From Acidobacteriota bacterium (lineage in GTDB: Bacteria > Acidobacteriota > UBA6911 > RPQK01 > JADFOI01), in NCBI GenBank assembly GCA_963663035.1, contig OY760074.1, positions 3,104,001 to 3,168,000 of the forward strand: a stretch of 64,000 bases of DNA, given 5' to 3'. Position 1 is the first letter of the stretch. Each line of letters opens with the position of its first letter. Both the position numbers and the translations under genes were made by a program. Shown here piece by piece: positions 17,529-64,000 of this stretch. The notes under the pieces were generated by a model that was not told the origin of the DNA, ran no database searches, and saw nothing but the letters and a program-made list of their open reading frames with translations.

Positions 17529-17627
17529 TGGCGGAGGCACATGGGAATCGAACCCACCAACCCCAATTCTCATTGCGGCTCGGCTGGTTTTGAAGACCAG
17601 GCCCATCACCAGACAGGAAGTACCTCC
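17529..17627 (-). tRNA. selC: tRNA-Sec (anticodon UCA)
   Basis: 8-bp acceptor GGAGGTAC/GTGCCTCC, anticodon arm CTGGT-CTTCAAA-ACCAG, long variable arm, GGTTCGATTCC T-loop, GCCA end; 99 nt. Confidence 0.95.
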
Positions 17628-17767
17628 CGGGTTGGAGTATACCACTCCCGAGACGCTTTTCTTCTGGCCCGATGATACCCCTCCTCGCTATACTTCCTTG
17701 GAACTGCAGTGAACAACACAAAGGGAGTAAACTCTACGTTCAGACTACCCAAAAGTTTGTAGAAAGC

Positions 17768-20700
17768 ATGAATAGAATAACAGAGGCTTTGGAGCAAAAA
17801 GTAATCTTTATCACCGGGGCTACTGGGTTTTTAGGTCAACCGCTGGTGGAGAAGATCCTGAGAGTTGCACCCGGTGTTAAGCGAATCTATCTTCTCATTC
17901 GGCCCAAGCGGCAACTTGCTGGTCAGGTCATGACGGCCGAGGAGAGGTTAGCGAAGGAATTATTCCAATCCAACATTTTTGAACGCCTGCGCTATAAGTA
18001 CCAGGACCAACTCAAAGGGTTTCTCCAAGAAAAGTTAGTTGCGGTTTCAGGGGATATTTCCGAACCTGGGTTAGGGTTGGACAGCGCCCTCAGGAGTCGA
18101 CTCGAAGAGGAGGTTGATATTGTCATCAACAGCGCTGCAGCGGTCTCATTCGATGCGCCATTGGATGAAGCTCTTAAAGCCAACGTTTTGAGCGCTGGCC
18201 GCATTGCCACCTTTACAAGTTCTTGTAAGGGAGCAATGTTGGTTCACGTCTCTACTGCCTATGTCAGCGGTGTTGCCGAAAACTTCGTCCCTGAGACGAT
18301 TTACCACTCAGCTTCGGGAGCAGAAGCAGCACAACCACACCCACCAGGGAAGTTCAGTGATGTGGATCAGGAAATTAAATATATCCATAAAATGATTGAA
18401 CAGGTTAAATTAGCCTCTCACGAGCCGAAACTCAAAAAAGTGCTTCTGAAAGAACCCCGCAAGCCTCGAAGAGGCGGTAAACGAGTGCCTCGTGCAGAGA
18501 AATGGGAAATCCTGCGCAAGAAATGGGTACAGGGCCGTTTGACCGAAGAGGGCATGAAGTGGGCGCGCCACCGAGGATGGAACGATACATACACCTACAC
18601 CAAGGCCATGGGCGAGCAGATGGTGGTTAAGAGACGGAATGGAATCCCTACCGTCATCATTCGCCCCTCAGTTATTGAGAGCAGCTTCTCAGAGCCCACT
18701 CCTGGCTGGCTGGACGGATTACGAATGGCCGACCCTCTCATTGTGGCAATTGGGAAGGGCCGCCTCCGGTCGCTACCCCTTGACGCGGATGTCATCCTTG
18801 ACCTAGTGCCGGTTGATATGGTCGTGAATGCCCTGCTGGCCACGATTCCGCCGGCCATTGAAGGTGGCGGGATGAAGGTGTATCACGTCGCGACGGGCGC
18901 AAAAAACCCGGTTACACTAGGTGAGCTCCACAGGCTTGTCTACCAGTATTTTCAAAAAAACCCACTATTGGACAAACGGGGCAACCCAATCCGCATCAAA
19001 CCACTAAAGTTTCCCAAACAGAGCGCTTTCCGGCTACAGCACAAGTTGAAAACGATGCCCTTACAGACAGCTGAGCTCACACTAGCAAGGCTGCCTTCTT
19101 TCAACACAACAGACAAAGTGAAGCGGAAGATCTCTACCGCTAAGGCTACCTACGAGAAGCTGTACTACTATGGAGAGATCTACCGGCCCTATCTTAATTT
19201 GGCCTGCAGCTTCGAAGTGCAAAACACGCTGCAGCTGTTCGATGCCTTAAATGAAGAGGAAAAAGAGCTTCTCAACTTCAATATTGAACGCTTAAACTGG
19301 CGCCACTACATTCAAAACGTTCACATTCCGGGTGTAAAAAAACACGTACTTAAGCTGGATGACTCCCCAACCCCGCTGGACGCAACCACTTCCTCCGATG
19401 CACTGACAATCAATGCGCTTGTTGACAACACTACAGAGAGATTTCCAAACAAGACCGCGATTCAAATGAAGCGCCAAGGTCACTGGCAGCGATTTACCTA
19501 TAAAGAGCTTCAATCCATCTCTCAGGAGATCGGGCAAGCTTTTTTAGGGATGGGACTTCGAAAAGGGGACCGCGTTGTCCTCTATTCGGAGAACAAGCCA
19601 GAGTGGGGAATCGCTTATCTGGGAGCAACCTCAGTGGGTTTGGTGGTTGTACCGCTGGATGCCCAGACGTGGCACAAAGAAGTCTGGGCGGCCGCACGGT
19701 TTACCCAGGCACGGGCATTGTTGGCATCCGAGGACTGCCTTGAGAGGCTTGCCCCGGAAGGCTTAGAAGAAAACGAGCGTCAGGATTCCCCGGTTCAATT
19801 ATTGAACCTTGATAATCGATGCACACCTTTTAAAGCGAAGGAATTTCCACGCAGCACTCGATTGTCTTCCCAGAAGAGGGAGGTTACGGAAAAGATCGAA
19901 GTGAAGCCTGGCGATCCGGCTTCGATCATCTTCACAAACAGCACCGCGGTAGACCCAAAAGGAGTGGCGCACAGCCATCGCAACTTCATCAACAACTTCC
20001 TGGGGGTCAATCACCACTTACCAATCGAACCAAGCGACCAGCTACTTTCCGTTCTTCCCCTGTCCCACGCCCTTGAATTCACTTGTGGATTCCTGATGGC
20101 GATCTATGGTGGAGCCACAGTGACCTACGTCGATTCACTCAAGCCGAAGGTCATTCTTGAATCGATGCAAAAGACGGGAACAACTTGCATGCTGGGAGTC
20201 CCTACTCTGTATGCTTTGATTCGAGATGATATAGAGCGGCGCATTCTGAGAACTCCTAAATCAGCTTTTAAATCAAACCTTCTCGCCACCTCGAAACAGG
20301 TGAGCCTGTCGGTGGAGCGGAAATTCGGAAAGAACATTGGCCGCCAACTTTTCGGCCGCGTGCACCAGGAATTTGGGGGGCAGATCAGACTTTTCGTGAG
20401 CGGTGGGTCTGCGTTGGGGGAAAAGCTCTACCAAGACTTCAAGGTGCTTGGAATGCCGATTTACGAGGGTTATGGCTTAACCGAAACGGCCCCCGTTCTC
20501 ACCGTCAACCCTTTAGGGCACAGCAGGAAAGGATCCGCGGGAAAGCCTCTTCCCGGTGTGGAACTCAGAGTCTTTCGTCCGGATAAGGAGGGAATTGGCG
20601 AGATTGTAGCGCGGAGTCCCAGCTTAATGGAGGGTTACTACAACAATCCTGCAGCCACGGAGTTCGTGATGAGAGAGGGCTGGTTTCATACCGGCGACCT

Positions 20701-22114
20701 CGGATGGATGGATGCCGATGGGTATCTGTACGTCACCGGACGAATCAAGGACGTCATTGTCACGGGGGCTGGCAAGAATGTCTACCCTGCTGACCTGGAA
20801 GCAATCTACCGAAGCCTTCCCACCGTCAAAGAGATTTGCGTTTTGGGGATCAAGAGTGGCCTCACAGAGGATATCCATGCCGTTGTGATTCCCGATGGAG
20901 GAGGGCAAGGCCAGCGCGAAGCGGCCGAGGTGAAGAAGGAGGTTCAACAGGAAATTCAGAAGATAGGAAAGGAGTTGCCGAGCTATCACCGACTCCAACA
21001 CATCCATGTGTGGCTTGAGCCCTTACCACGGAGCGAGTCAGGGAAGGTTTGCAGGGAGACAGTTCGGGGTAAACTCCTGGAGGATCTCCAGCATGAGCGC
21101 GATCGACCCAGCCAGGACTCTCCCCCAGAAGTGCACAAGGAAGAGGATCGAGAAGATGAGCTTTTGAGAGAACTCTCTCGGATCTCCGGTGTTCCAACTC
21201 TGGAAATCAAAGCGGATAGCCACCTTTATTCAGATCTGGGGCTAGATTCCTTGATGACAATCCAATTCCTTTTGTTTGTCGAACATCAGCTCGGAGTCAC
21301 CATCTCTGATCAAGCAGCGCCAGCCCTGGAGACTGTGGGGCAGCTTCTAGAGGAAATCCGCTCCCAGGTTTCGGTCAGGAAGCCGCGACATGGAAGCAAG
21401 CCGACAAAGCGGCCCAAGATTCGCTCGGCTCGGCCTTACACCAGGCGCTCGGCAGTTGATCGGAGATTGCTGAGTAGTTGCCAGTGGATTCTTAGAGTGC
21501 TTTACAAGACATATTTTCAATTGGAACTACACAACCAGAAAGACTTCCCCCAGGGTGGCCCTTTCATCATTGCAGCCAATCACGCTAGCCACCTGGATGC
21601 CGGAGCGATGATTTCAGCTGTCATCATTGCGGCAGGCGTCAAGGAGGCACGGAAATTACATGTCTTGGGGGCCAGGGATTATTTTTTCAACACCCCCTTC
21701 AAGAGTTGGCTCTTCAGCACTTTCCTAAATCTAGTGCCTGTTGAACGGGAAGAAACATCTCTGGCCGGTATACGGATGGTGAAATCCATTCTGTCTGCTG
21801 GTGAATCTGTGTTGATCTTCCCCGAGGGAACCCGCTCGCGGACGGGTCAGATCCAGGAATTTAAACCCGGCGTTGGTTTAATCGCACTGGAGTTGGGCGT
21901 GCCGGTTGTACCCGCCTATATCGGAGGGACCTATGAGGCGATGCCTACCGGAAAGGCTTTCCCCCAGCGCAGAAAAGTAAAGGTGTTCTTTGGCCCGACC
22001 ATCCGGGTGGAAGCCAATCTTTCAAAGGGCACACGAACAGTCGCCGATGAGCGCTATCGACAAATTGCCACAGAAGTCCGCACGGCCATCGTAGAGTTGG
22101 CAAATCTGTCATAA
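17768..22114 (+). CDS. Multidomain fatty acyl reductase / adenylation / acyl carrier / acyltransferase fusion (ElbD-like)
   Basis: FAR: ITGATGFLG, HVSTAYV, TYTYTK, IIRPSVIES, DLVPVDMVVN; adenylation: YEGYGLTET, WFHTGDLG, GKNVYP; ACP: DLGLDSL; PlsC-type acyltransferase: NHASHLD, FPEGTRS. Start taken as MNRITE. Confidence 0.9.
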   Translation: MNRITEALEQKVIFITGATGFLGQPLVEKILRVAPGVKRIYLLIRPKRQLAGQVMTAEERLAKELFQSNIFERLRYKYQDQLKGFLQEKLVAVSGDISEPGLGLDSALRSRLEEEVDIVINSAAAVSFDAPLDEALKANVLSAGRIATFTSSCKGAMLVHVSTAYVSGVAENFVPETIYHSASGAEAAQPHPPGKFSDVDQEIKYIHKMIEQVKLASHEPKLKKVLLKEPRKPRRGGKRVPRAEKWEILRKKWVQGRLTEEGMKWARHRGWNDTYTYTKAMGEQMVVKRRNGIPTVIIRPSVIESSFSEPTPGWLDGLRMADPLIVAIGKGRLRSLPLDADVILDLVPVDMVVNALLATIPPAIEGGGMKVYHVATGAKNPVTLGELHRLVYQYFQKNPLLDKRGNPIRIKPLKFPKQSAFRLQHKLKTMPLQTAELTLARLPSFNTTDKVKRKISTAKATYEKLYYYGEIYRPYLNLACSFEVQNTLQLFDALNEEEKELLNFNIERLNWRHYIQNVHIPGVKKHVLKLDDSPTPLDATTSSDALTINALVDNTTERFPNKTAIQMKRQGHWQRFTYKELQSISQEIGQAFLGMGLRKGDRVVLYSENKPEWGIAYLGATSVGLVVVPLDAQTWHKEVWAAARFTQARALLASEDCLERLAPEGLEENERQDSPVQLLNLDNRCTPFKAKEFPRSTRLSSQKREVTEKIEVKPGDPASIIFTNSTAVDPKGVAHSHRNFINNFLGVNHHLPIEPSDQLLSVLPLSHALEFTCGFLMAIYGGATVTYVDSLKPKVILESMQKTGTTCMLGVPTLYALIRDDIERRILRTPKSAFKSNLLATSKQVSLSVERKFGKNIGRQLFGRVHQEFGGQIRLFVSGGSALGEKLYQDFKVLGMPIYEGYGLTETAPVLTVNPLGHSRKGSAGKPLPGVELRVFRPDKEGIGEIVARSPSLMEGYYNNPAATEFVMREGWFHTGDLGWMDADGYLYVTGRIKDVIVTGAGKNVYPADLEAIYRSLPTVKEICVLGIKSGLTEDIHAVVIPDGGGQGQREAAEVKKEVQQEIQKIGKELPSYHRLQHIHVWLEPLPRSESGKVCRETVRGKLLEDLQHERDRPSQDSPPEVHKEEDREDELLRELSRISGVPTLEIKADSHLYSDLGLDSLMTIQFLLFVEHQLGVTISDQAAPALETVGQLLEEIRSQVSVRKPRHGSKPTKRPKIRSARPYTRRSAVDRRLLSSCQWILRVLYKTYFQLELHNQKDFPQGGPFIIAANHASHLDAGAMISAVIIAAGVKEARKLHVLGARDYFFNTPFKSWLFSTFLNLVPVEREETSLAGIRMVKSILSAGESVLIFPEGTRSRTGQIQEFKPGVGLIALELGVPVVPAYIGGTYEAMPTGKAFPQRRKVKVFFGPTIRVEANLSKGTRTVADERYRQIATEVRTAIVELANLS

Positions 22115-22191
22115 TTAAGGTGGTAGTTTGTTTGAGGCTTGTCTCAGCACAGAACATCTCTGCCCTGTGAATAGAAAAGAGGAGAATGCTA

Positions 22192-22920
22192 ATGCCCAAA
22201 AGCTTGTTTATCCTTTCAACCATTCTGTTGAGCGGTCTCTTTGCCTGCGGCGTGCAGGAAACCCAAGAGGGGGCCCAGCAACAGGCAGGAAGCCCGCCTG
22301 CAGATCAACTCGAAAGTGAAGCAACAACTCCCTCGATAGTTCCAGAGACCCAACTTGAAGCCGGCGCCGACCCAGCGGTTGCTCCTGCTGCCCCTCCCCA
22401 GCCCGCAACTGCCATTGTCCCGGAGGGAACGGTTCTGGAAGTCCGCCTGCCAGAGCCGCTGAGCACCAAAACCAATCAGAATGGCGACGCAGTAGTTGCT
22501 TTGCTGGACGAGGATTTGGTAGTGGATGGAAAGATCGTCTTTCCGGAAGGAAGTAAAATCTATGGCACGCTCTTGGCCGTAAAAGGCTCTGGGCGGGTTG
22601 AGGGCCTTGCGGAGATGACCCTCACCCTGACGGAAATACACCTGGGTCAAGATATCTATCCAGTTGGCACCAGCGCCATTACAATTCAAGCCGAAGGCAC
22701 CAAGGGGCGCGACGCCACAGTGATTGGAGGTGCTGCCGGTGTGGGGGCGTTAGTTGGTGGAATTATCGGCGGTAAAAAAGGGGCCGCTGTTGGGGCCGCT
22801 GTTGGGGGTGGGGCTGGAACAGCACAAGTGCTCACGAGCACGGGTGAGGAAGTTGAGCTTGAACCAGAGCACAAGCTCAGCTTTAACTTGAGCAGGGAGC
22901 TTGAAGTGAAGCTTCCCTAG
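22192..22920 (+). CDS. Lipoprotein with beta-rich domain and glycine-zipper C-terminus
   Basis: Lipobox GLFAC after a hydrophobic leader; VPEGTVLEVRL; GAAGVGALVGGIIGGKKGAAVGAAVGGGAG. Confidence 0.75.
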   Translation: MPKSLFILSTILLSGLFACGVQETQEGAQQQAGSPPADQLESEATTPSIVPETQLEAGADPAVAPAAPPQPATAIVPEGTVLEVRLPEPLSTKTNQNGDAVVALLDEDLVVDGKIVFPEGSKIYGTLLAVKGSGRVEGLAEMTLTLTEIHLGQDIYPVGTSAITIQAEGTKGRDATVIGGAAGVGALVGGIIGGKKGAAVGAAVGGGAGTAQVLTSTGEEVELEPEHKLSFNLSRELEVKLP

Positions 22921-22929
22921 TTCCTTGGT

Positions 22930-22958
22930 TTGACCAGGGACCCCGCATTTTCTACAAT
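22930..22958 (+). promoter_or_regulatory. Sigma70 promoter of tRNA-Ser
   Basis: TTGACC-17 nt-TACAAT, 40 nt upstream of the tRNA. Confidence 0.7.
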
Positions 22959-22998
22959 ACAGGCGCCATTCGGATCACTTTCTGATCCGTTGCCGGCC

Positions 22999-23090
<92 letters not shown>

Positions 23091-23197
23091 GAGCTATTAG
23101 CCTTTTAGACTCAAGAACTTGAGGGCTTTCCATCAGCGTTTCCAGTCAGCTTCAAACAGGCGCTCCCACTTTCTGTACTACTGAAGGACAATGAGCC

Positions 23198-24958
23198 GTG
23201 GATGAGGATCGCCAAAACACCCAGACGATGGACGAGCAGCCCTGGGGACATCGCTGGGGCTTTGCTGACACGCGCTTTATTCTCAATGACGATGGATCTG
23301 TCACCTTAACCGGCGCCCGCTACGATCTATGCGGTTATCGGATGTACGACTTTCTGCCCTATGTAGAGGGCGTTCTCGGGGTCCGGCTGGATCTGACCGA
23401 CCGCAAAGAAGAAGTTCGAGACAAGCCCGTTCAGGCCCCCAGCCGAAATGAAGCTTTCTGCCAGTCAGTGGAACAGGCGTTCCCATCCAGCCAGTACACT
23501 ACGGATGATCGGGAGCGCCTGATCCACAGCCACGGGCAGAGCTCCGCCGATGAAGTGTTTCCGGTTGTCTATACCCGGATCCAGCGAGTGGCGGACATGG
23601 TTTTCCACTGCGAGTCCCAAGAGGATGCACACAAGATCATCCAGCTGGCGAAAGAACACGATGTCTGCCTGGTTCCCTTCGGGGGAGGCACTAGTGTCAG
23701 CTGTGCGCTCAAGCTCCCCGAAAGCGAAAAGCGGATGATTGTCTGCGTGGATATGAAGCGGATGAACAAGATCGAGTGGATCGACAAGGATAATCTGCGG
23801 GCTGGCGTCCAGGCGGGCATCACTGGCCTCCAGCTTGAACGGGAACTGGAAAAAGCCGGCTTCACGTCAGGCCATGAGCCTGACAGTCTCGAGCTTTCGA
23901 CCGTGGGAGGGTGGATTGCCACCAATGCCAGCGGAATGAAGAAGAATCGATACGGAAATATTGAGGGCTTGGTGGAAGAGATCACCATGATTACCCCGGA
24001 AGGCATACTGGAGCAGGCCGAGGCGCTGCCGCGGACTTCTATGGGGATCCAGCCCCAGAACCTCTTCTTCGGCAGCGAAGGGAATCTGGGAATTATTACC
24101 AAGGCAGCACTCAAGATCCATCCGACTCCGGAGGTCAAGAAATACGGCTCCCTGATTTTCCCCAATTTCGATCTCGGCACTCAATTCCTTTATCGACTGT
24201 CCCATAGTGGCTTTGTTCCCGCCAGTATTCGTCTGGTAGACAACACCCAACTTCGTTTCGGGCAGGCCCTCAAACCGAGGCCGGCCGGCTTCAAGGCATT
24301 CCTGGAGCGACTCAAGAAGTTTTATGTACTGAGAGTTCGGGGATTTGAGCCGGATGAGATGGTCGCCGCGACCATAGTGATGGAAGGCTCTCGAGTGGAA
24401 GTCGAGTTCCAGGAGCGCAATACTTACGCTCTAGCGAAGGAGTTCCAGGGATTGCCTACCGGCTCTGAAAATGGGCGAAGAGGCTATCTGCTTACCTTCG
24501 CCATCGCCTACATCCGAGATTTTCTGGCCGACTTTCACGTGATGGGGGAGACTTTCGAGACCTCCGTCCCCTGGAGCAAGATTTCTGAGGTCTGCCAAGC
24601 GGTGAGAGCTAAAGCAGTCGCCCAGCACCAGGCCTTCAGTTTGCCCGGGAAGCCTTATCTTTCCTACCGGATCACCCAGGTTTACCACACAGGCGTTTGC
24701 ATTTACTTCATGTATGGAATTTACACCAGGGGAGTCGACCTTCCGGAAAAGATTTTCAGTACCATCGAGCACTCTCTGCGGGAAAGCATCATTGAGAACG
24801 GCGGGTCGATCTCTCATCACCATGGCGTGGGAAAACTCCGCAAGGATTTCATGAAGCAGGCGCTGTCCCTTTCGAGCATTGATTTGCTCAAGAAGATCAA
24901 GAACTGCGCCGATCCACAGAATATTTTTGGTATCCGCAACAACGTTTTCGCAGAATGA
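23198..24958 (+). CDS. Alkyl-dihydroxyacetonephosphate synthase (AGPS/ADAPS)-like FAD enzyme
   Basis: PFGGGTSV, GHEPDSLELSTVGGWIATNASGMKKNRYGNIE, PASIRLVDN, GYLLTFAIAYIRD, GETFETSVPW, RITQVYHTGVCIYF, GGSISHHHGVGKLRK, all matching recalled animal AGPS motifs. Confidence 0.88.
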   Translation: MDEDRQNTQTMDEQPWGHRWGFADTRFILNDDGSVTLTGARYDLCGYRMYDFLPYVEGVLGVRLDLTDRKEEVRDKPVQAPSRNEAFCQSVEQAFPSSQYTTDDRERLIHSHGQSSADEVFPVVYTRIQRVADMVFHCESQEDAHKIIQLAKEHDVCLVPFGGGTSVSCALKLPESEKRMIVCVDMKRMNKIEWIDKDNLRAGVQAGITGLQLERELEKAGFTSGHEPDSLELSTVGGWIATNASGMKKNRYGNIEGLVEEITMITPEGILEQAEALPRTSMGIQPQNLFFGSEGNLGIITKAALKIHPTPEVKKYGSLIFPNFDLGTQFLYRLSHSGFVPASIRLVDNTQLRFGQALKPRPAGFKAFLERLKKFYVLRVRGFEPDEMVAATIVMEGSRVEVEFQERNTYALAKEFQGLPTGSENGRRGYLLTFAIAYIRDFLADFHVMGETFETSVPWSKISEVCQAVRAKAVAQHQAFSLPGKPYLSYRITQVYHTGVCIYFMYGIYTRGVDLPEKIFSTIEHSLRESIIENGGSISHHHGVGKLRKDFMKQALSLSSIDLLKKIKNCADPQNIFGIRNNVFAE

Positions 24959-25013
24959 GTGGAGAGTTGGTAGGATTGCGGGTTACACAACCCATTCGCC
25001 GGAGTGTTCCAAA

Positions 25014-25820
25014 ATCGTTCTGAAGGACAAAACAGCCATTATTACGGGAGCCTCTTCTGGTCTGGGAAGGCAGATGGCGCTGGATCTGGCCCGACAGGAG
25101 ATGAATCTTGTTTTGGCGGCCCGGGACGGGAACGCCTTGGAAGAGCTGGCTCGCCAAATCGGAGACCGGGGAGCATCCGTTCTGGTGCATCCGACCGACG
25201 TGACAGATGAGTCACAATGCCGCACGTTGATTACCAGGACAATAGAACGTTTCAAGAGGCTGGACTATTTAGTTTTGAATGCCGGGCTGGGCATGTGGGT
25301 CCGCTTCGATCAGGTCACTGATCTAAGCATCTTCAGACGGCTCATGGATGTGAACTATATGGGGGTGGTGCACTGTATCCATCCCGCTCTTCCCTACCTC
25401 AAAGAGGTTTGCGGAACCGTTGTCACCATCTCCTCCGCCCAGGCCTTGATCGGCATCTCCAAGCACACGGGCTACTCGGCCACAAAACACGCCCTGAGAG
25501 GATTTCTGGAGGCTTTGGAATTCGAGATGGGAGGCCAGATCCGGTTCCTGACGGTAATGCCCGGCTGGGTCAGCGGAACCAAGCTGAGGACTAATGCCCT
25601 GGGAGCGGCTGGAGCTCCACTAGGCGCCTCCAGGCTTCGCCACACCGATGAAGCAGTCAGTCTGGAAGAATGCAGCACAAGAATTGTTCGAGCAATGCAG
25701 GAGGGTTCCAGTGCTGTTTACATCCCCTGGAAGATCCGTGCCATCCCCTGGCTCAAGCTGTTGGTTCCGGGGTGGCTTAGGGCCAGGATCAAGAGATCAA
25801 TGGCTCAGCAGGAGAAGTGA
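25014..25820 (+). CDS. Classical short-chain dehydrogenase/reductase (possibly DHRS7/7B-like); start uncertain
   Basis: TGASSGLG, LAAR, NAG, YSATK; no in-frame ATG/GTG, so the start is ATC 25014 or CTG 25020 after GGAG, or TTG 24879 overlapping AGPS. Confidence 0.8.
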   Translation: MVLKDKTAIITGASSGLGRQMALDLARQEMNLVLAARDGNALEELARQIGDRGASVLVHPTDVTDESQCRTLITRTIERFKRLDYLVLNAGLGMWVRFDQVTDLSIFRRLMDVNYMGVVHCIHPALPYLKEVCGTVVTISSAQALIGISKHTGYSATKHALRGFLEALEFEMGGQIRFLTVMPGWVSGTKLRTNALGAAGAPLGASRLRHTDEAVSLEECSTRIVRAMQEGSSAVYIPWKIRAIPWLKLLVPGWLRARIKRSMAQQEK

Positions 25821-25840
25821 AGCGTCGCTTTCGACGCTTC
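25819..25840. terminator. Hairpin at the end of the AGPS-SDR unit
   Basis: GAAGCGTCG-CTTT-CGACGCTTC 9-bp stem; no clear U-tract. Confidence 0.4.
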
Positions 25841-25855
25841 AAACTTCAAGAAGAG

Positions 25856-25878
25856 AACCTATGCATAATCCCGGCTAG
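25856..25878 (-). repeat. Solo terminal fragment of repeat family A
   Basis: Reverse complement CTAGCCGGGATTATGCATAGGTT closely matches the left end of the 4831 element (TAAGCCCGGATTATGCATAGGTT). Confidence 0.6.
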
Positions 25879-26004
25879 AGCATCTTGCGATCCATGGCTT
25901 CAGCCGCTGGATGAGTCCTTCATTCGAGCGGATCTCTTCTACCATTACAGGGTAATCCATGACTTACGCTTGCACATGTGCCCCACATGTTCCATGCTAG
26001 GTGC

Positions 26005-26244
26005 ATGGCCAAGATGCTACAAGTTCGAAACATACCCGACCGGCTCCACAGGGAACTGAGGAGACGAGCGAAACAGCGGGGTCAAGCGCTGACGGACTAC
26101 GTTCAACAGATACTCGAGCGTGAAGTCACTCGCCCACCAGCCTCGGAAGTGTTTGACCGAATCAGCCGACGCCCTAGAGTGAAATTGGACGTCAGCGCCT
26201 CCACCTTGATTCGGGAAGAACGAAGAAAGCGAGTTGCATCCTGA
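26005..26244 (+). CDS. FitA/VapB-like ribbon-helix-helix antitoxin
   Basis: MLQVRNIPDRLHRELRRRAKQRGQALTDYV; promoter TTGCAC-17-CATGCT overlapping CACATG repeats (likely operator). Confidence 0.85.
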   Translation: MAKMLQVRNIPDRLHRELRRRAKQRGQALTDYVQQILEREVTRPPASEVFDRISRRPRVKLDVSASTLIREERRKRVAS

Positions 26245-26252
26245 GGCTTGTC

Positions 26253-26645
26253 GTGCTGGATGCCTCGGCATTAGTGGAATACCTCTTACAGACACCCAGA
26301 TCCACTTCAATTGAGGGTCTTGTCACAGCATCCGATTGTGATTTACACGGTCCCACCCTATGTGATGTCGAAGTTTGCTCGGCACTGCGTAGAGCTTTGC
26401 TCGCCAAACGTCTCTCCGAGAAGCGTGCCACTGAGGCGTTGGAAGACTACCTTGACTTGCCCTTGATTCGTCACGGACACCTCAACTTGCTAGAGAGAGT
26501 GCTCCAATTACGAGACAATTTCTCAGCCTACGACGCCACGTACTTGTCTTTGGCCGAGTCATTCGGAGCTATTTTCGTTACTGCGGACGACTCCCTAGCG
26601 CGAGCAGTCCGAAGACACCTCCCTGACTTGCAATTGAGAAAGTAG
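26253..26645 (+). CDS. vapC: VapC-family PIN-domain toxin
   Basis: LDASALVE, DVEV, NFSAYDATYLSLAE, VTADDSL. Confidence 0.9.
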   Translation: MLDASALVEYLLQTPRSTSIEGLVTASDCDLHGPTLCDVEVCSALRRALLAKRLSEKRATEALEDYLDLPLIRHGHLNLLERVLQLRDNFSAYDATYLSLAESFGAIFVTADDSLARAVRRHLPDLQLRK

Positions 26646-30541: not shown

Positions 30542-32140
30542 TTACTGACGCTCACTGTTGGAACCCTCCTGGTGGTCGGGAATTGTCGCGCCCAACTTGA
30601 CGAGCAGGGCCATGGTGTCCTCGTATTTATTGTTCGCGGGCGCCAGCCGTTCGGCGACCTGATAGGGCGTCACTCCCCGGCGGTCCGCCGCATCCAGGTC
30701 CGAACCATTCTCCGCCAGGAATCGAACGATTTCTTGCGCGCGAATATTGACGGCAGCGTGCAGTGCTGTTCGACCATCCGAATCCCGCTCAGCGAGATCG
30801 GCTCCCAGCCCCACGAGAAGTTTCACGGCCTCCAAGCTATTCGCGTCCTCCGCCTCCTTGCTACCATGAAGGTCTTCCCGCGGAACGCCATCCGCAAGCC
30901 GCTTTGCTCCCGCTGCCAGCATCAGCGGCGGCGTCCCATCGAGCTCCAACTTCAGATGTGGGTCGGCGCCTGCGTCCAACAGGGCGCGCATGATACGCAC
31001 ATCGGCGGCAGCAGCGGCGAGAGCGAACGGCGTGCCTCCGATGGGGCTGTTATTCGACGTTTGATTCGTAAACTGCGAAAGAGGCGAGAAGTGTCCAGTG
31101 ATTCGGGCGTTCGGATTGGCTCCATGCGAGAGGAGCGCCTCGACCAATTCCGGCATGTTCGGCCGCCGTTCGGGTCGAGGTTTGTGATGCCCTCCTGTAA
31201 GAGTTTTACCAATGGCTACCCAGCCCTCGGGCACGGCATGATGCAGGGCCGTCCAGCCGTATGCATCCGTCGAGTTCGGATCCGCGCCTTTATCCAGCAG
31301 GAACAGCGCAAGCGCTTGATGCCCGTTCGCGGTTGCCATCACCAAGGCGCTGGGATTGGCGTCTGGGACAAAACAAAATGGACCCTCCCCGGGCCATCCT
31401 CGGTTATTGCCGTAATTGTTCACACAGGGACCGCCGGTCAGGTCCCGGCGCGCATCAGGTCCTCTGGCCGTCACTTCATTCACATCCACGCCCGCCCCAA
31501 GCAAGATCCGAGCCGACTCCAGATCCCCCTCCTGAGCGGAAAACATCAACGCGGTGAACCCATCCTTGGAACGTGCGTTGACATCCGCTCCTGCCTCAAT
31601 CAGCGCCTGCACAACCGGAGAGTGCTTCCCTGCCACCGCCCGCATCAGCGCGGTATGCCGCTGCCGCTCCTCTGTCACATCGACATCCGCCCCCGCTGAC
31701 AGCAGCAACTTGACCGCCTGGACATCGCCCGTGCGGGCGCATGTGATGAGTGGTGTCTCTCCGGTCCATTGGACCACGTTCGGATCGGCGCCCGCCTTCA
31801 GGAAAGTCGCCACCATGGCCGCACTCCGATTCTGACAAGCCAGCGTGAGAGGCGTGACGCCATAGTCGTTGGCCAGGTTCGGGTTGGCGCCGGCGCGAAC
31901 CAGCAGGTCAGCCGTCTCCAGATCGGTCCAGTGAGCGGCCCAAGCCAATGCGGTGGTTCCATCACCTTGCGTGGTATCGACATTCGCGCCCTGTTCTATG
32001 AGAGCGCGCACCACTTCAGTACCGGCCAGGTTTTTAACGACCTGTATCAGCCCAAGATCCTCCGCCGACGCAGGGACGCTGGCCAACAGGACTGCAGAGA
32101 CAATCCAGCCTCCTATTCGAACTGTCGTTCTCGCGTTCAT
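30542..32140 (-). CDS. Exported ankyrin-repeat protein
   Basis: Multiple GxTPL/TAL...LLxxGADxN repeats; signal peptide from MNARTT (RBS GGAGG). Confidence 0.9.
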   Translation of the reverse strand: MNARTTVRIGGWIVSAVLLASVPASAEDLGLIQVVKNLAGTEVVRALIEQGANVDTTQGDGTTALAWAAHWTDLETADLLVRAGANPNLANDYGVTPLTLACQNRSAAMVATFLKAGADPNVVQWTGETPLITCARTGDVQAVKLLLSAGADVDVTEERQRHTALMRAVAGKHSPVVQALIEAGADVNARSKDGFTALMFSAQEGDLESARILLGAGVDVNEVTARGPDARRDLTGGPCVNNYGNNRGWPGEGPFCFVPDANPSALVMATANGHQALALFLLDKGADPNSTDAYGWTALHHAVPEGWVAIGKTLTGGHHKPRPERRPNMPELVEALLSHGANPNARITGHFSPLSQFTNQTSNNSPIGGTPFALAAAAADVRIMRALLDAGADPHLKLELDGTPPLMLAAGAKRLADGVPREDLHGSKEAEDANSLEAVKLLVGLGADLAERDSDGRTALHAAVNIRAQEIVRFLAENGSDLDAADRRGVTPYQVAERLAPANNKYEDTMALLVKLGATIPDHQEGSNSERQ

Positions 32141-32201
32141 TGTGAACCTCCACAGACGGCGCATGAACCCGACTCGAGCCGCCCCACGCCCTGACGCGAA
32201 T

Positions 32202-33557
32202 CTATACCGAGAGAAGATTAAGCTGTCCTGTGCTGTCACCGAATTCCTCCATAGGAAGCCCCATCTTCTCCAGCAGGGTCAAATAGAGATTCGTGACCGG
32301 CGTCTCGATCGGATACTTCAGATGCCGGCCACCCTTGATCTGTCCGGCACCGGCGCCAAACACCAGCACCGGAAGGTTCTGAAAGTCATGGCTATTGCCA
32401 TCGGAGATGGCGCTGCCACATGTCACGATCGAGTTATCCAACAGGGAACCGTCACCATCGGGCGTCGACTGCAGCCTGTCTAAATAGTACGCGAACATCT
32501 GGGACTGCAGGGTTTCGATCTTGACCACCTTCTCGATCTTCTCCTGGTCGCCACCGTGATGCGTTATCGCGTGATGAGCGTCGGAGACCCCTATCTCCGG
32601 GAAGGCCCGATTGGTCTTTTCACGGCCCATCATGAAGGTATTTACCCGGGTGATATCGGCCTGGAAAGCCAGAACGAGCAAGTCGGCCGTCAACTTGGCG
32701 TGTTCTTGATACGTGGGAGGCGTTCCGGTGGGCCGCTCTACCGATGGCAAGTCCCACGGTCCCTGCTTTTCGGCCATTTCGATGCGACGCTCGATGTCAC
32801 GAATGGCATGGGTGTATTCGGAGAGCTTCGTCCGATCACTCGGACCCAGCTGCCGCACGAGGGCAGCCATCGCCTCGCTGACCGAATCGAGAATACTCCG
32901 ATTCATTCGAAACCTCGCGCTCTGCTCACGCGAATCCGTGCTCTGCAGATCACCAAACAAACGCTCGAACACCTTGCGCGGATTGTGCTCCATCGGCAGG
33001 GGCGTTGTTGGGCTTTGCCAGGACAGCGTGTTGATATAGGCGCAACTCCACCCCCGCTCACACGCGCCTATGATCCCGGCCGGATCCAGGGTGACTTCGA
33101 GGGATCCTAATTGTGTGTACTTCCTGAACTCATTCGCAACGATCTGATCCAGGGAGATTCCATTCTGGAAATCCGTACCAGCAGTCCAGCGCGGCCGCAC
33201 ACCGGTCAGGTATGCACCGAGGGGCCGCTCGTGCACTCCCACTGGCTGCCCAGGCAACACTCGTGCAGGTTCCTGCGACAAGCCGCTCAGGATGGCGAAT
33301 CGATCACGAAACGGGGCGAGCGGCTCGAGAAGAGGAGGCAACTCGAAGCCCGTGCCGACCGTCGTGGGCGTCCATCGATCCATGATTCTCCCGTTTGGAA
33401 GGTACACAATGGACAACCGCTTAACCGGCTGGGCCGCACTCCCCTGAGCGAATGCTGGAATCATTGCATCCAGCAGGGGCAAAGCCATCGTTATGCCTGC
33501 ACCTCGCAGGAAGGTGCGCCGGGGGACTGACTTACCAAAATTCAACATGTTGCACAT
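32202..33557 (-). CDS. DUF1552 (HXXSHH-like) family protein with Tat motif
   Basis: PRRTFLRG, ALPLLDAM, ISLDQI, NPRKVFERLFG, SILD, HHAITHH, SLLDNS. Confidence 0.85.
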   Translation of the reverse strand: MCNMLNFGKSVPRRTFLRGAGITMALPLLDAMIPAFAQGSAAQPVKRLSIVYLPNGRIMDRWTPTTVGTGFELPPLLEPLAPFRDRFAILSGLSQEPARVLPGQPVGVHERPLGAYLTGVRPRWTAGTDFQNGISLDQIVANEFRKYTQLGSLEVTLDPAGIIGACERGWSCAYINTLSWQSPTTPLPMEHNPRKVFERLFGDLQSTDSREQSARFRMNRSILDSVSEAMAALVRQLGPSDRTKLSEYTHAIRDIERRIEMAEKQGPWDLPSVERPTGTPPTYQEHAKLTADLLVLAFQADITRVNTFMMGREKTNRAFPEIGVSDAHHAITHHGGDQEKIEKVVKIETLQSQMFAYYLDRLQSTPDGDGSLLDNSIVTCGSAISDGNSHDFQNLPVLVFGAGAGQIKGGRHLKYPIETPVTNLYLTLLEKMGLPMEEFGDSTGQLNLLSV

Positions 33558-62383: not shown

Positions 62384-64000
62384 ATGGCCAGTTGTCAGCT
62401 GTCCGATGGGGAACTGATCCAGACCAAAACCATGACTTTCGATTTTTCCCAGCGTTTTCGGGAGAACTTGGAAAAGCTCTCCGAACAAGTCGCGCTTCAG
62501 CACATTACCCAGGAAGTAAAAGAATCCTTTACTTACCGCAGGATTGGTCAAGAGATTGCCAAAATCGGCCTGTTTCTAAAGAGTCAAGGCATTGGACCAG
62601 GAACCACCGTGGGGATTCTCATGGAAAATCAGCCCCGTTGGGGTATTGCCTTTCTCGCAGTGCAAAGTATCGGGGCTCGAATCGCTCCTTTTGACATCCT
62701 GCACGACGGCAAGACGCTGGCTGGGTTGATCCAACATGCCGAGTGCAAATTCCTCATCTCATCTGAGAAGTTATTCTCTGAAGTCAAAGAGATCCAGGAA
62801 CTTTTACCTGAACCTCTACCCACCTTGATCACCGGTCTACACGTCAAAGATGACTTCCACTGGGAGACGATAGTGGCCAAAAGCGAGGAGGCAACTCTTT
62901 CGCCCTGGGTGGAATGCGATCCGGACGAAGCGTTTGTACTCCTTTATACGAGCGGCACGACTGGGAATCCCAAGGGCGTTGTCCTCACGCGGCGCAATAT
63001 TTATCGAAATGTTCAGGAACTCCTGAACATCATCCGAGTGACCTCGCACGATCACATCCTCTCGGTGCTGCCCTTATATCATGTCTTGGCTCTGCTGGTG
63101 AACTTTATCATCCCGCTCACCGTGGGGGCCCAGGTGACCTATTTGGACTCCCTGGACGCTCAGCGCATTCTCAAGAGCTTTCAAGATGAAGGAATTACAA
63201 TTTTCGTCTGTGTTCCACAGTTCTACAATCTCCTCTATCACCGAATCCTTCAAGAGGTAAAAGGACAATCCCTGCTCAAAAGATTCCTCTTCCACCGGCT
63301 TCTCACTTTCTCTCACTTTTGTAATGAGCATATCGGCTGGAACCCGGGGAAGTTCTTCTTTTCGGCCATTCACAGACGTTTCGGCTCCCGCTTCCGACTC
63401 TTTGGTGTGGGGGGAGCGCACTTTGACCGAGAAGTTTCCGAGTACCTGCGAGACCTCGGATTTATCCTCGTACAGGCCTACGGCATGACGGAAACAGCAG
63501 CTCTCGCGACCATCACTCCTCCCGGATCCAAGGCTCAGGCTTCAGTGGGGCCACCTCTTTCCCACGTGAAGATTAAGATTGAGCAACCCAATCAAGAGGG
63601 GGTAGGGGAGGTTCTCATTAGCGGCGAAAACATTATGCAAGGCTACTGGAAGAACCCTCAGGCCACGACAGAGGTCCTGAAGAATGGATGGCTCCACAGC
63701 GGCGATCTAGGTTACTTGAACTCCCAGGGGCAGCTCCTCATCACCGGGCGCAAGAAAGATGTCATTGTGCTCAGTTCAGGGAAGAACATTTACCCGGAAG
63801 AGGTGGAGTATTTCTATGAGACCAATTGCCTTTCCATCAAAGAATTATGCGTTCTGGGGATACCTGACAGCACTGCCAGTCTGGAACAGGAAAAGCTCCA
63901 TGCTGTGATTGTGCCGGACTTCGACTACATGAAGAGCCGGCAAACAGTCAATACCTATGAAATGATCCGCTACATGCTGGATACTGTCTCACAGCGGCTT
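62384..64000 (+). CDS. Long-chain acyl-CoA/ACP ligase (AMP-binding), truncated by the window edge
   Basis: Not in the ORF track; open frame to the end with LLYTSGTTGNPKGV, QAYGMTET, WLHSGDLG, GRKKDVIVLSSGKNIYPEEVE; alternative start 62432. Confidence 0.88.
   Translation, partial: MASCQLSDGELIQTKTMTFDFSQRFRENLEKLSEQVALQHITQEVKESFTYRRIGQEIAKIGLFLKSQGIGPGTTVGILMENQPRWGIAFLAVQSIGARIAPFDILHDGKTLAGLIQHAECKFLISSEKLFSEVKEIQELLPEPLPTLITGLHVKDDFHWETIVAKSEEATLSPWVECDPDEAFVLLYTSGTTGNPKGVVLTRRNIYRNVQELLNIIRVTSHDHILSVLPLYHVLALLVNFIIPLTVGAQVTYLDSLDAQRILKSFQDEGITIFVCVPQFYNLLYHRILQEVKGQSLLKRFLFHRLLTFSHFCNEHIGWNPGKFFFSAIHRRFGSRFRLFGVGGAHFDREVSEYLRDLGFILVQAYGMTETAALATITPPGSKAQASVGPPLSHVKIKIEQPNQEGVGEVLISGENIMQGYWKNPQATTEVLKNGWLHSGDLGYLNSQGQLLITGRKKDVIVLSSGKNIYPEEVEYFYETNCLSIKELCVLGIPDSTASLEQEKLHAVIVPDFDYMKSRQTVNTYEMIRYMLDTVSQRL

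Follow-up and report, generated by a model that had tools for sequence, protein, structure and literature searches.

Can an ElbD-type enzyme and an alkylglycerone-phosphate synthase (AGPS), which the papers cited below treat as independent alternatives in the synthesis of bacterial ether lipids, serve a single pathway? The question is raised by a 64,000-nucleotide stretch of an Acidobacteriota genome (GenBank assembly GCA_963663035.1, contig OY760074.1, positions 3,104,001 to 3,168,000), which we call the window, its organism being the host. Here, the gene for a four-domain protein resembling ElbD of Myxococcus xanthus, in which fatty acyl reductase (FAR), adenylation, carrier and acyltransferase (AT) domains are fused, is followed on the same strand by genes predicted to encode AGPS and a short-chain dehydrogenase/reductase (SDR). 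An original prediction, made from the sequence alone, held that these genes form a compact hybrid pathway, in which the fusion supplies both AGPS substrates. Having compared the locus with those of its relatives, we lean towards the view that it specifies the synthesis of 1-O-alkyl glycerolipids by an AGPS-type route, with the fusion feeding AGPS and the SDR to give 1-alkyl-glycerol-3-phosphate. The evidence comes from a conserved AGPS-SDR module, from the co-occurrence of AGPS with the fusion, and from a second partner set that appears to replace this module in related genomes.

Bacterial alkyl ether-lipid synthesis outside the anaerobic PlsA/Ger route is unsettled, as is the formation of the ether bond by ElbD systems without AGPS, and an answer matters for tracing where the ether-lipid biomarkers ascribed to Acidobacteriota come from. 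According to excerpts of the published reports (all papers here are cited from excerpts), M. xanthus carries elbABCDE as well as a separate set of MXAN_1676 (AGPS), MXAN_1675 (FAR-AT) and MXAN_1674 (NAD-dependent epimerase family), with ElbD as the main ether-lipid route and AGPS as a minor one (PMC9131029, PMC13012113). Two independent ether-lipid pathways have been described (PMC13159169), and elb operons have been noted in subdivision 4 (PMC10087280). Homologues of elbD and agps have also been reported in the same metagenome-assembled genomes (MAGs) of Acidobacteriota, Poribacteria and Latescibacterota, as have 'standalone' elbD genes (bioRxiv 10.64898/2026.06.23.733905, PMC11868695). The co-occurrence of the two genes in acidobacterial MAGs is already published, and is not new here. 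New are the combination of an ElbD-type enzyme with an AGPS-SDR module and the apparent mutual exclusion of partner sets, in that one order pairs the ElbD-type enzyme either with AGPS-SDR or with an operon encoding HAD-family, zinc-dependent alcohol dehydrogenase (Zn-ADH) and LarA-like proteins. In a limited literature search, we found no paper linking an SDR to bacterial AGPS, none linking LarA-like proteins to ElbD or ether lipids, and none reporting an exclusion between AGPS and Zn-ADH.

A conserved AGPS-SDR module

Judged by its sequence, the flavoenzyme in the window is a true AGPS. Its residues 16-581 align with residues 93-656 of guinea-pig AGPS (PDB 4bby; phmmer E 7.2e-160, 536 bits), and its identity to the biosynthetic enzyme of animals exceeds 45%. 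The stretches shhhgvgklrk (the HHH loop), tqvyhtgvciyf and asirlvdn align to 4bby and are invariant in 11 relatives; presumably they hold the catalytic residues, namely the HHH loop, a tyrosine and an arginine. Orthologues with 60-91% identity are found in 25 of the 41 relatives that we compared. Translation could also begin at an ATG at 23228.

The SDR scores 266.8 bits with NCBIfam PRK06181, above the cut-off of 215 bits, and has the motifs TGASSGLG and YSATK. Its sole canonical in-frame start is the TTG at 24879, with which it overlaps the 3′ end of AGPS by 80 nt; similarity to relatives starts near residue 45, and the true start is uncertain. In 14/14 of the relatives' loci that were fetched, the SDR lies directly downstream of AGPS. 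We also took the best 80 of 566 AGPS loci confirmed in a species-representative collection, 76 of which have at least 900 nt of downstream sequence, and an orthologous SDR directly follows AGPS in 40 of these 76 loci across phyla. By phylum, the adjacency is seen in 13/13 loci of Fidelibacterota/Marinimicrobia, 11/12 of Latescibacterota, 10/12 of Acidobacteriota and 2/3 of Gemmatimonadota, and in none from Chloroflexota (0/19), Cyanobacteriota (0/5) and Myxococcota (0/3). The tight linkage originally proposed for the window thus extends well beyond it, and AGPS-SDR is a conserved two-gene module. It is this conserved adjacency that suggests a functional link between the SDR and AGPS.

A Marinimicrobia contig (L028:5100-10223) illustrates what such a module may belong to. 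It carries four overlapping genes, confirmed by Pfam, for FAR (563 aa), AT (258 aa), AGPS (591 aa) and SDR (279 aa), which by their predicted domains make up a complete bacterial counterpart of the peroxisomal ether-lipid enzyme set. The terminal domains of the fusion have homologues in the FAR and AT of this operon, with 38% and 28% identity, respectively. Separately, a 1210-aa open reading frame (ORF) in genome G277 had the appearance of a FAR-AGPS fusion. We rejected it because the FAR match belongs to another open frame (612 versus 1238 aa), so that the two genes are adjacent rather than fused.

The ElbD-like fusion is a core gene and the host's only FAR

Pfam recovers the four domains of the fusion in the predicted order (NAD_binding_4 and Sterile, AMP-binding and AMP-binding_C, PP-binding, Acyltransferase). 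This is the order FAR-ACS-ACP-AT (ACS, adenylation; ACP, carrier) of M. xanthus ElbD, compared here by its described architecture (PMC9131029). The positions and common strand of the fusion, AGPS and SDR genes were likewise borne out by Pfam, NCBIfam and phmmer (Table 1). For the fusion, the start at 17768 is favoured over an upstream ATG at 17672, as relatives' alignments begin at residue 1 of the former. Readable in the translation are GATGFLG and YTYTK in the FAR domain, LGLDSL in the carrier domain, and NHASHLD and FPEGTRS in the acyltransferase domain, which we take to be the catalytically meaningful Rossmann GxxGxxG, YxxxK, carrier serine, HX4D and FPEGTR motifs. The P-loop of the adenylation domain is atypical (TNSTAVDPKG).

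Full-length orthologues of the fusion, 53-90% identical, occur in 33 of the 41 relatives, and two more relatives have it in pieces at contig ends (35/41 in total); the six without a match are 65-96% complete. We also examined a phylum sample of 301 Acidobacteriota genomes, each at least 90% complete. All 23 of its genomes from the host's order have exactly one FAR match, which is the fusion, and the fusion is thus a core gene of this acidobacterial order. In the host genome (a single contig of 3.59 Mb, 96.6% complete), the fusion is the sole strong PF07993/FAR match, with 234 bits compared with 54 bits for the next best. No Ger/PlsA-type domain (PF09989) was found in this genome, and there is one gene for an AcpS-type phosphopantetheinyl transferase.

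AGPS and the fusion co-occur more often than they adjoin

AGPS is found in 18 of the 301 genomes of the phylum sample, 15 of the 18 belonging to the host's order. A FAR-domain protein is present in 18/18 of these AGPS-bearing genomes, versus 40/283 of those lacking AGPS. The expected co-occurrence therefore holds, and AGPS-SDR itself is conserved, but adjacency to the fusion proved to be confined to two lineages. In the host (G000) and at five further loci (G002, G038, G327, L050 and L064), 1.1-3.3 kb separate AGPS-SDR from the fusion, and the orientations vary. The module is co-directional with the fusion in the host and G002, which belong to one genus, and convergent with it in the other four, which belong to another family. 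At these loci the module repeatedly adjoins a tRNA-Ser gene, in three different arrangements across genomes: in the host it follows this gene, in G327 it abuts it and is inverted, and in G038, L050 and L064 it is placed between the fusion and tRNA-Ser. The link between the fusion and AGPS rests more on co-occurrence than on position.

Two partner sets in one order

In relatives, the usual neighbours of the fusion are different. Locus maps based on tblastn give the order pheA, tRNA-SeC, YegS/DAGK-type lipid kinase, fusion, HAD-IB (ElbB-like), polyol-type Zn-dehydrogenase, LarA-like, lipo244 (a lipoprotein-like ORF) and tRNA-Ser(GCT). In a congener of the host (G005), whose fusion is 74% identical to the one in the window, all of these usual partner genes are present and AGPS is absent. 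An IS481-type transposase lies between the Zn-ADH and LarA-like genes of this congener (L104:4935-5882), a sign of recent rearrangement.

The absence of the usual elb partner genes from the window, recognized from the start, was correct and is true genome-wide. The host genome has no Lar_N domain and so no LarA-like gene, no ElbB-like HAD detectable by tblastn (PF12710 matches reach only 31 bits), no Zn-ADH orthologue (only paralogues, 24-28% identical), and a lipid kinase only as a 27% identical paralogue. The host locus keeps lipo244 and tRNA-Ser, after which AGPS-SDR follows. Compared with acidobacterial ElbD-type clusters that include genes for a lipid kinase, a HAD protein and Zn-ADH, parts of which have been described (bioRxiv 10.64898/2026.06.23.733905), the host locus has an orthologous fusion and shares the context of pheA, tRNA-SeC, fusion, lipo244 and tRNA-Ser, but it has AGPS-SDR and none of the kinase, HAD, Zn-ADH and LarA-like genes. 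Similarly, the fusion of the relatives resembles the M. xanthus elb cluster in lying beside a HAD-family (ElbB-like) gene, whereas the host genome lacks this HAD and the other partners, and has AGPS-SDR in their place. A loose parallel to kinase and HAD genes beside ElbD exists in animals, where ACAD10 is described, in the excerpt cited, as an alkylglycerol kinase and HAD-type ether-lipid phosphatase (PMC13596139).

To see how regular this alternation is, we counted both sets in 57 genomes of the host's order that are at least 90% complete. AGPS is present in 39 and Zn-ADH in 17, no genome has both, and one has neither (G333, in 310 contigs). These counts, like those for the relatives and the phylum sample, include the Zn-ADH-type genome G017, without which the order count is 39/16/0/1 of 56. 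Among the 41 relatives, incomplete MAGs included, 25 have AGPS, 13 have Zn-ADH, four have neither (these are 65-81% complete) and one has both (G002). The other partners follow Zn-ADH closely: HAD occurs in 16/17 Zn-ADH genomes and one AGPS genome (G019), i.e. in 17/57, and the LarA-like gene in 16/17 Zn-ADH genomes and five AGPS genomes of one family (f9), where it is of a divergent type and adjoins the fusion. AGPS-SDR and the Zn-ADH operon thus appear to be mutually exclusive partner sets in this order.

We mapped the two states onto a phylogeny that covers 37 fusion proteins and was built with the quick search of IQ-TREE under LG+G4. It leaves aside G017, the genomes with split, partial or missing fusions (G001, G037, G004, G007, G010, G011, G012, G014), G039 (although its fusion is full-length) and the order genomes whose fusion was not fetched. 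The state changes at least six times, and some of these changes fall within two genera. Among seven phylogenetically independent pairs that differ in AGPS, Zn-ADH differs in the opposite direction in 5-6 and in the same direction in none. The pattern of exclusion is striking, but few independent events lie behind it. The tree of AGPS agrees broadly with that of the fusion, with weak support at depth. Both modules look old in the order, and either set may have replaced the other.

Outside the order, in a family that we term f45, clusters consist of HAD, LarA-like and ElbD genes without Zn-ADH, and in two genomes of this type (G153 and G305) there is also an AGPS, more distant in sequence and not accompanied by the SDR. 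We therefore rejected exclusion as a phylum-wide rule. Since the f45 clusters lack Zn-ADH and two of them coexist with AGPS, the exclusion is specific to this order and to Zn-ADH. The LarA-like protein belongs to the nickel-pincer family, and its gene is found repeatedly next to that of ElbD, both in this order and beyond it. An example (L103:13653-15203) has a Lar_N domain and scores 486 bits with the NCBIfam NPN-dependent hydroxyacid isomerase family, which is below the cut-off of 740 bits.

A proposed pathway

In the pathway that we favour, the ElbD-like fusion would stand in for the separate FAR and dihydroxyacetone phosphate (DHAP) acyltransferase genes of other bacterial AGPS operons. 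Its adenylation domain would load free fatty acid onto the protein's own carrier domain. The FAR domain would reduce a share of this loaded pool to fatty alcohol, and the acyltransferase domain would pass another share to DHAP, giving 1-acyl-DHAP. AGPS would then swap the acyl group for the alcohol, yielding 1-alkyl-DHAP and free fatty acid, which the adenylation domain could load again. Finally, the SDR would reduce 1-alkyl-DHAP to 1-alkyl-sn-glycerol-3-phosphate, which would enter ordinary phospholipid synthesis. Alkyl rather than vinyl-ether products are expected because no match to PF10520 (PEDS1/CarF) was found, in a search whose control was silent in 14/14 genomes. Within the order, the fusion would be the constant part, completed either by AGPS-SDR or by the operon for the HAD phosphatase, polyol-type Zn-dehydrogenase and LarA-like protein, which would have been lost from the host genome.

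Seen against the peroxisomal pathway (GNPAT, FAR1, AGPS and DHRS7B, also called PexRAP), AGPS is a clear orthologue, and FAR, acyltransferase and classical-SDR functions are all predicted to be encoded here, but fatty acids are activated as acyl-CoA in the peroxisomal pathway and would be activated on a carrier domain in the host. Like the peroxisomal route, the known bacterial AGPS system combines AGPS with FAR and acyltransferase functions and an oxidoreductase that depends on NAD(P). In the host, however, FAR and acyltransferase are the end domains of a four-domain ElbD-type protein that also has adenylation and carrier domains. The oxidoreductase of the known system is of the extended epimerase type rather than a classical SDR, and the separation of the fusion from AGPS by lipo244 and a tRNA gene is particular to the host locus.

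The proposed pathway makes predictions about which lineages should make which lipids, and offers a set of three genes to reconstitute, together with a matched alternative set from a congener. A further and more speculative extension, which we think doubtful, is that ElbD-type enzymes do not make the ether bond themselves, but provide activated acyl and alcohol components for a finishing module, which could be either AGPS-SDR or the set of HAD, polyol-type Zn-dehydrogenase and LarA-like proteins. In the latter set, the LarA-like protein might transiently oxidize the 2-hydroxyl of acyl-glycerol phosphate, and so enable an AGPS-like exchange of acyl for alkyl without a separate reductase. If this were true, the AGPS-independent ElbD route of myxobacteria and Acidobacteriota would gain named candidate enzymes, and the host genome would be the natural 'swap' that revealed them.

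Evidence against the pathway and alternative explanations

Several observations weigh against the AGPS-type route that we propose. Every catalytic step in it is inferred from sequence and comparative genomics. lipo244 and tRNA-Ser(GCT), which the original prediction did not mention, lie between the fusion and AGPS, so the fusion, AGPS and SDR genes are not one uninterrupted operon. Adjacency of the fusion to AGPS is the exception: in seven genomes with closed or large replicons (G016, G023, G024, G030, G036, G207 and G261), both genes are on one replicon but separated by 0.6-3.1 Mb. The best matches of the SDR in the PDB are generic SDRs (E about 1e-22) and give no specific assignment, and the motif NHASHLD cannot separate DHAP from glycerol-3-phosphate or lyso-lipid acceptors. 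In M. xanthus, disruption of AGPS barely lowers ether lipids and ElbD is required, according to the excerpt cited (PMC9131029), so ElbD enzymes can work without AGPS. The 17 Zn-ADH-type genomes of the order have no AGPS match, and 15 of the 17 were shown to carry the fusion (one family, f14, contributes five of its ten). No column in the fusion alignment separates AGPS-type from Zn-ADH-type genomes except at variable positions, and thus we see no sign that the fusion has adapted to AGPS.

The exclusion of the partner sets has its own weak points. The sign test on the independent pairs is borderline (p 0.03-0.06), and with only genomes at least 90% complete, 5/5 pairs are opposite, for which p is 0.0625, the minimum possible. 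HAD in G019 and the divergent LarA-like gene in the five f9 genomes coexist with AGPS. Moreover, G002 (88% complete, 6% contamination) carries both modules, on separate contigs. Its block of Zn-ADH, LarA, lipo244 and tRNA-Ser forms a 5-kb contig of its own, 87-92% identical to G005, and its fusion is 90% identical to that in the window and 74% to that of G005. Because G002 thus holds two versions of one lipo244-tRNA-Ser syntenic block (contigs C55 and C64; loci L002 and L112), an AGPS type and a Zn-ADH type that is closer to G005, it is probably a mixed bin of two strains. Overall, the originally proposed compact hybrid pathway has gained comparative support for its logic, but the compact cluster is lineage-specific and interrupted.

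An alternative is that the roles are split. The fusion would give AGPS only the alcohol, its acyltransferase would acylate sn-2 of 1-alkyl-glycerol-3-phosphate after AGPS and the SDR have acted, and acyl-DHAP would come from another acyltransferase, e.g. an ACS-ACP-AT paralogue. The fusion's acyltransferase has a PlsC/AGPAT-like NHxxxxD motif, if we presume the usual meaning of that motif, and the host genome has four other PlsC-type acyltransferases. Two of these, each of about 900 aa, are ACS-ACP-AT paralogues of the fusion that lack the FAR domain and match its residues ~555-1411 with 31-32% identity. The ElbD acyltransferase is also termed AGPAT-like in an excerpt of PMC9131029. However, the ACS-ACP-AT paralogues occur in most relatives, whether or not these have AGPS. 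In addition, the fusion's acyltransferase domain is nearer to the AGPS-adjacent acyltransferases of other phyla (40-45% identity and 147-187 bits for cyanobacteria, 27-34% identity for Marinimicrobia) than to the host's own PlsC (22% identity, 45 bits); the two ACS-ACP-AT paralogues are 30-34% identical to it, with scores about equal to those of the AGPS-adjacent enzymes. This pattern is compatible with a DHAP-acyltransferase role for the fusion, without showing one, and we regard split roles as unlikely.

It is also conceivable, though quite improbable in our view, that two independent systems happen to be neighbours, with the fusion using AGPS-independent chemistry as in M. xanthus and AGPS-SDR drawing its alcohol and acyl-DHAP from elsewhere. 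Genetic data from M. xanthus and the published view that there are two pathways independent of each other, as given in the excerpts cited, point this way (PMC9131029, PMC13159169), as do the lack of linkage between the fusion and AGPS in most relatives, and the tRNA gene and unrelated gene that separate them in the host. On the other hand, the host genome has no other FAR-type reductase, and the fusion's usual operon partners are absent from that genome. Independence would also leave unexplained the 0/57 overlap between AGPS and Zn-ADH, and the recurrent location of AGPS-SDR where the fusion cluster ends.

FAR enzymes also serve wax-ester synthesis, and DNA nearly identical to the window occurs in sequencing runs labelled with coded organisms, making host-associated life possible; yet the idea that fatty alcohols, wax esters or remodelled phospholipids are the products of the fusion, while AGPS-SDR salvages or degrades imported ether lipids, is very unlikely, given the biosynthetic look of the FAR-AT-AGPS-SDR operons of other phyla and the identity of more than 45% between AGPS and its biosynthetic counterpart in animals.

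Layout of the locus and neighbouring features

The coordinates of the locus are collected in Table 1. AGPS starts 1084 nt past the stop codon of the fusion, in agreement with the gap of about 1.1 kb first estimated. The congener G002 has an identical gene order on an independently assembled contig, with 89-92% identity, so the locus is not an assembly artefact.

Table 1. Positions of the ElbD-like fusion, the AGPS-SDR module and associated features in the window, unless another locus is given
Feature	Position	Strand	Evidence and remarks
tRNA-SeC	17529-17627	-	ARAGORN and Rfam; between pheA and fusion, just upstream of fusion
ElbD-like four-domain fusion (FAR/acyl-AMP ligase/ACP/PlsC-type acyltransferase), 1448 aa	17768-22114	+	Pfam
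FAR domain of fusion	17810-19354	+	NAD_binding_4 17810-18832 (230 bits), Sterile 19142-19354 (50 bits)
Adenylation (acyl-AMP ligase) domain and C-terminal subdomain	19427-21046	+	AMP-binding 242 bits, AMP-binding_C 30 bits
Carrier (phosphopantetheine attachment) domain	21158-21352	+	PP-binding 38.6 bits
PlsC-type acyltransferase domain	21521-21922	+	Acyltransferase 88.5 bits
Lipoprotein-like ORF (lipo244), 244 aa, Gly-rich C-terminus	22186-22920	+	Pfam/NCBIfam: no match
tRNA-Ser(GCT)	22999-23090	+	ARAGORN and Rfam
Predicted alkylglycerone-phosphate synthase (AGPS), EC 2.5.1.26, 586 aa	23198-24958	+	FAD_binding_4 and FAD-oxidase_C; phmmer to PDB 4bby
Classical SDR, 313 aa, candidate acyl/alkyl-DHAP reductase of the DHRS7B/PexRAP or Ayr1 kind, EC 1.1.1.101	24879-25820	+	adh_short 152.8 bits, NCBIfam PRK06181
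FAR-less paralogues of fusion	62384-64000 (runs past window end) and G000:C1:3080564-3083134		

lipo244, which has no family match in Pfam or NCBIfam, has a signal peptide, a Cys after LFA and a Gly-zipper-like C-terminus. AGPS-type and Zn-ADH-type genomes alike have it 3′ of the ElbD cluster, and it is probably a conserved synteny marker and unlikely to be a pathway enzyme. The tRNA-Ser(GCT) gene is retained in 10/11 of the relatives' loci that were scanned, and is a conserved boundary at the 3′ end of the ElbD cluster. Upstream of the fusion, pheA and tRNA-SeC are on the opposite strand; the position of tRNA-SeC next to the fusion is kept in relatives, and the gene implies the use of selenoproteins. 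Directly 3′ of the SDR (window 25817-26645), a small ORF and a gene for a PIN-domain protein (35 bits) resemble a VapBC-type toxin-antitoxin pair. Further downstream, on the minus strand (30542-32239), ankyrin repeats (Ank_2, 203 bits) take up almost the entire length of a 565-aa protein, an unusual composition for a free-living bacterium.

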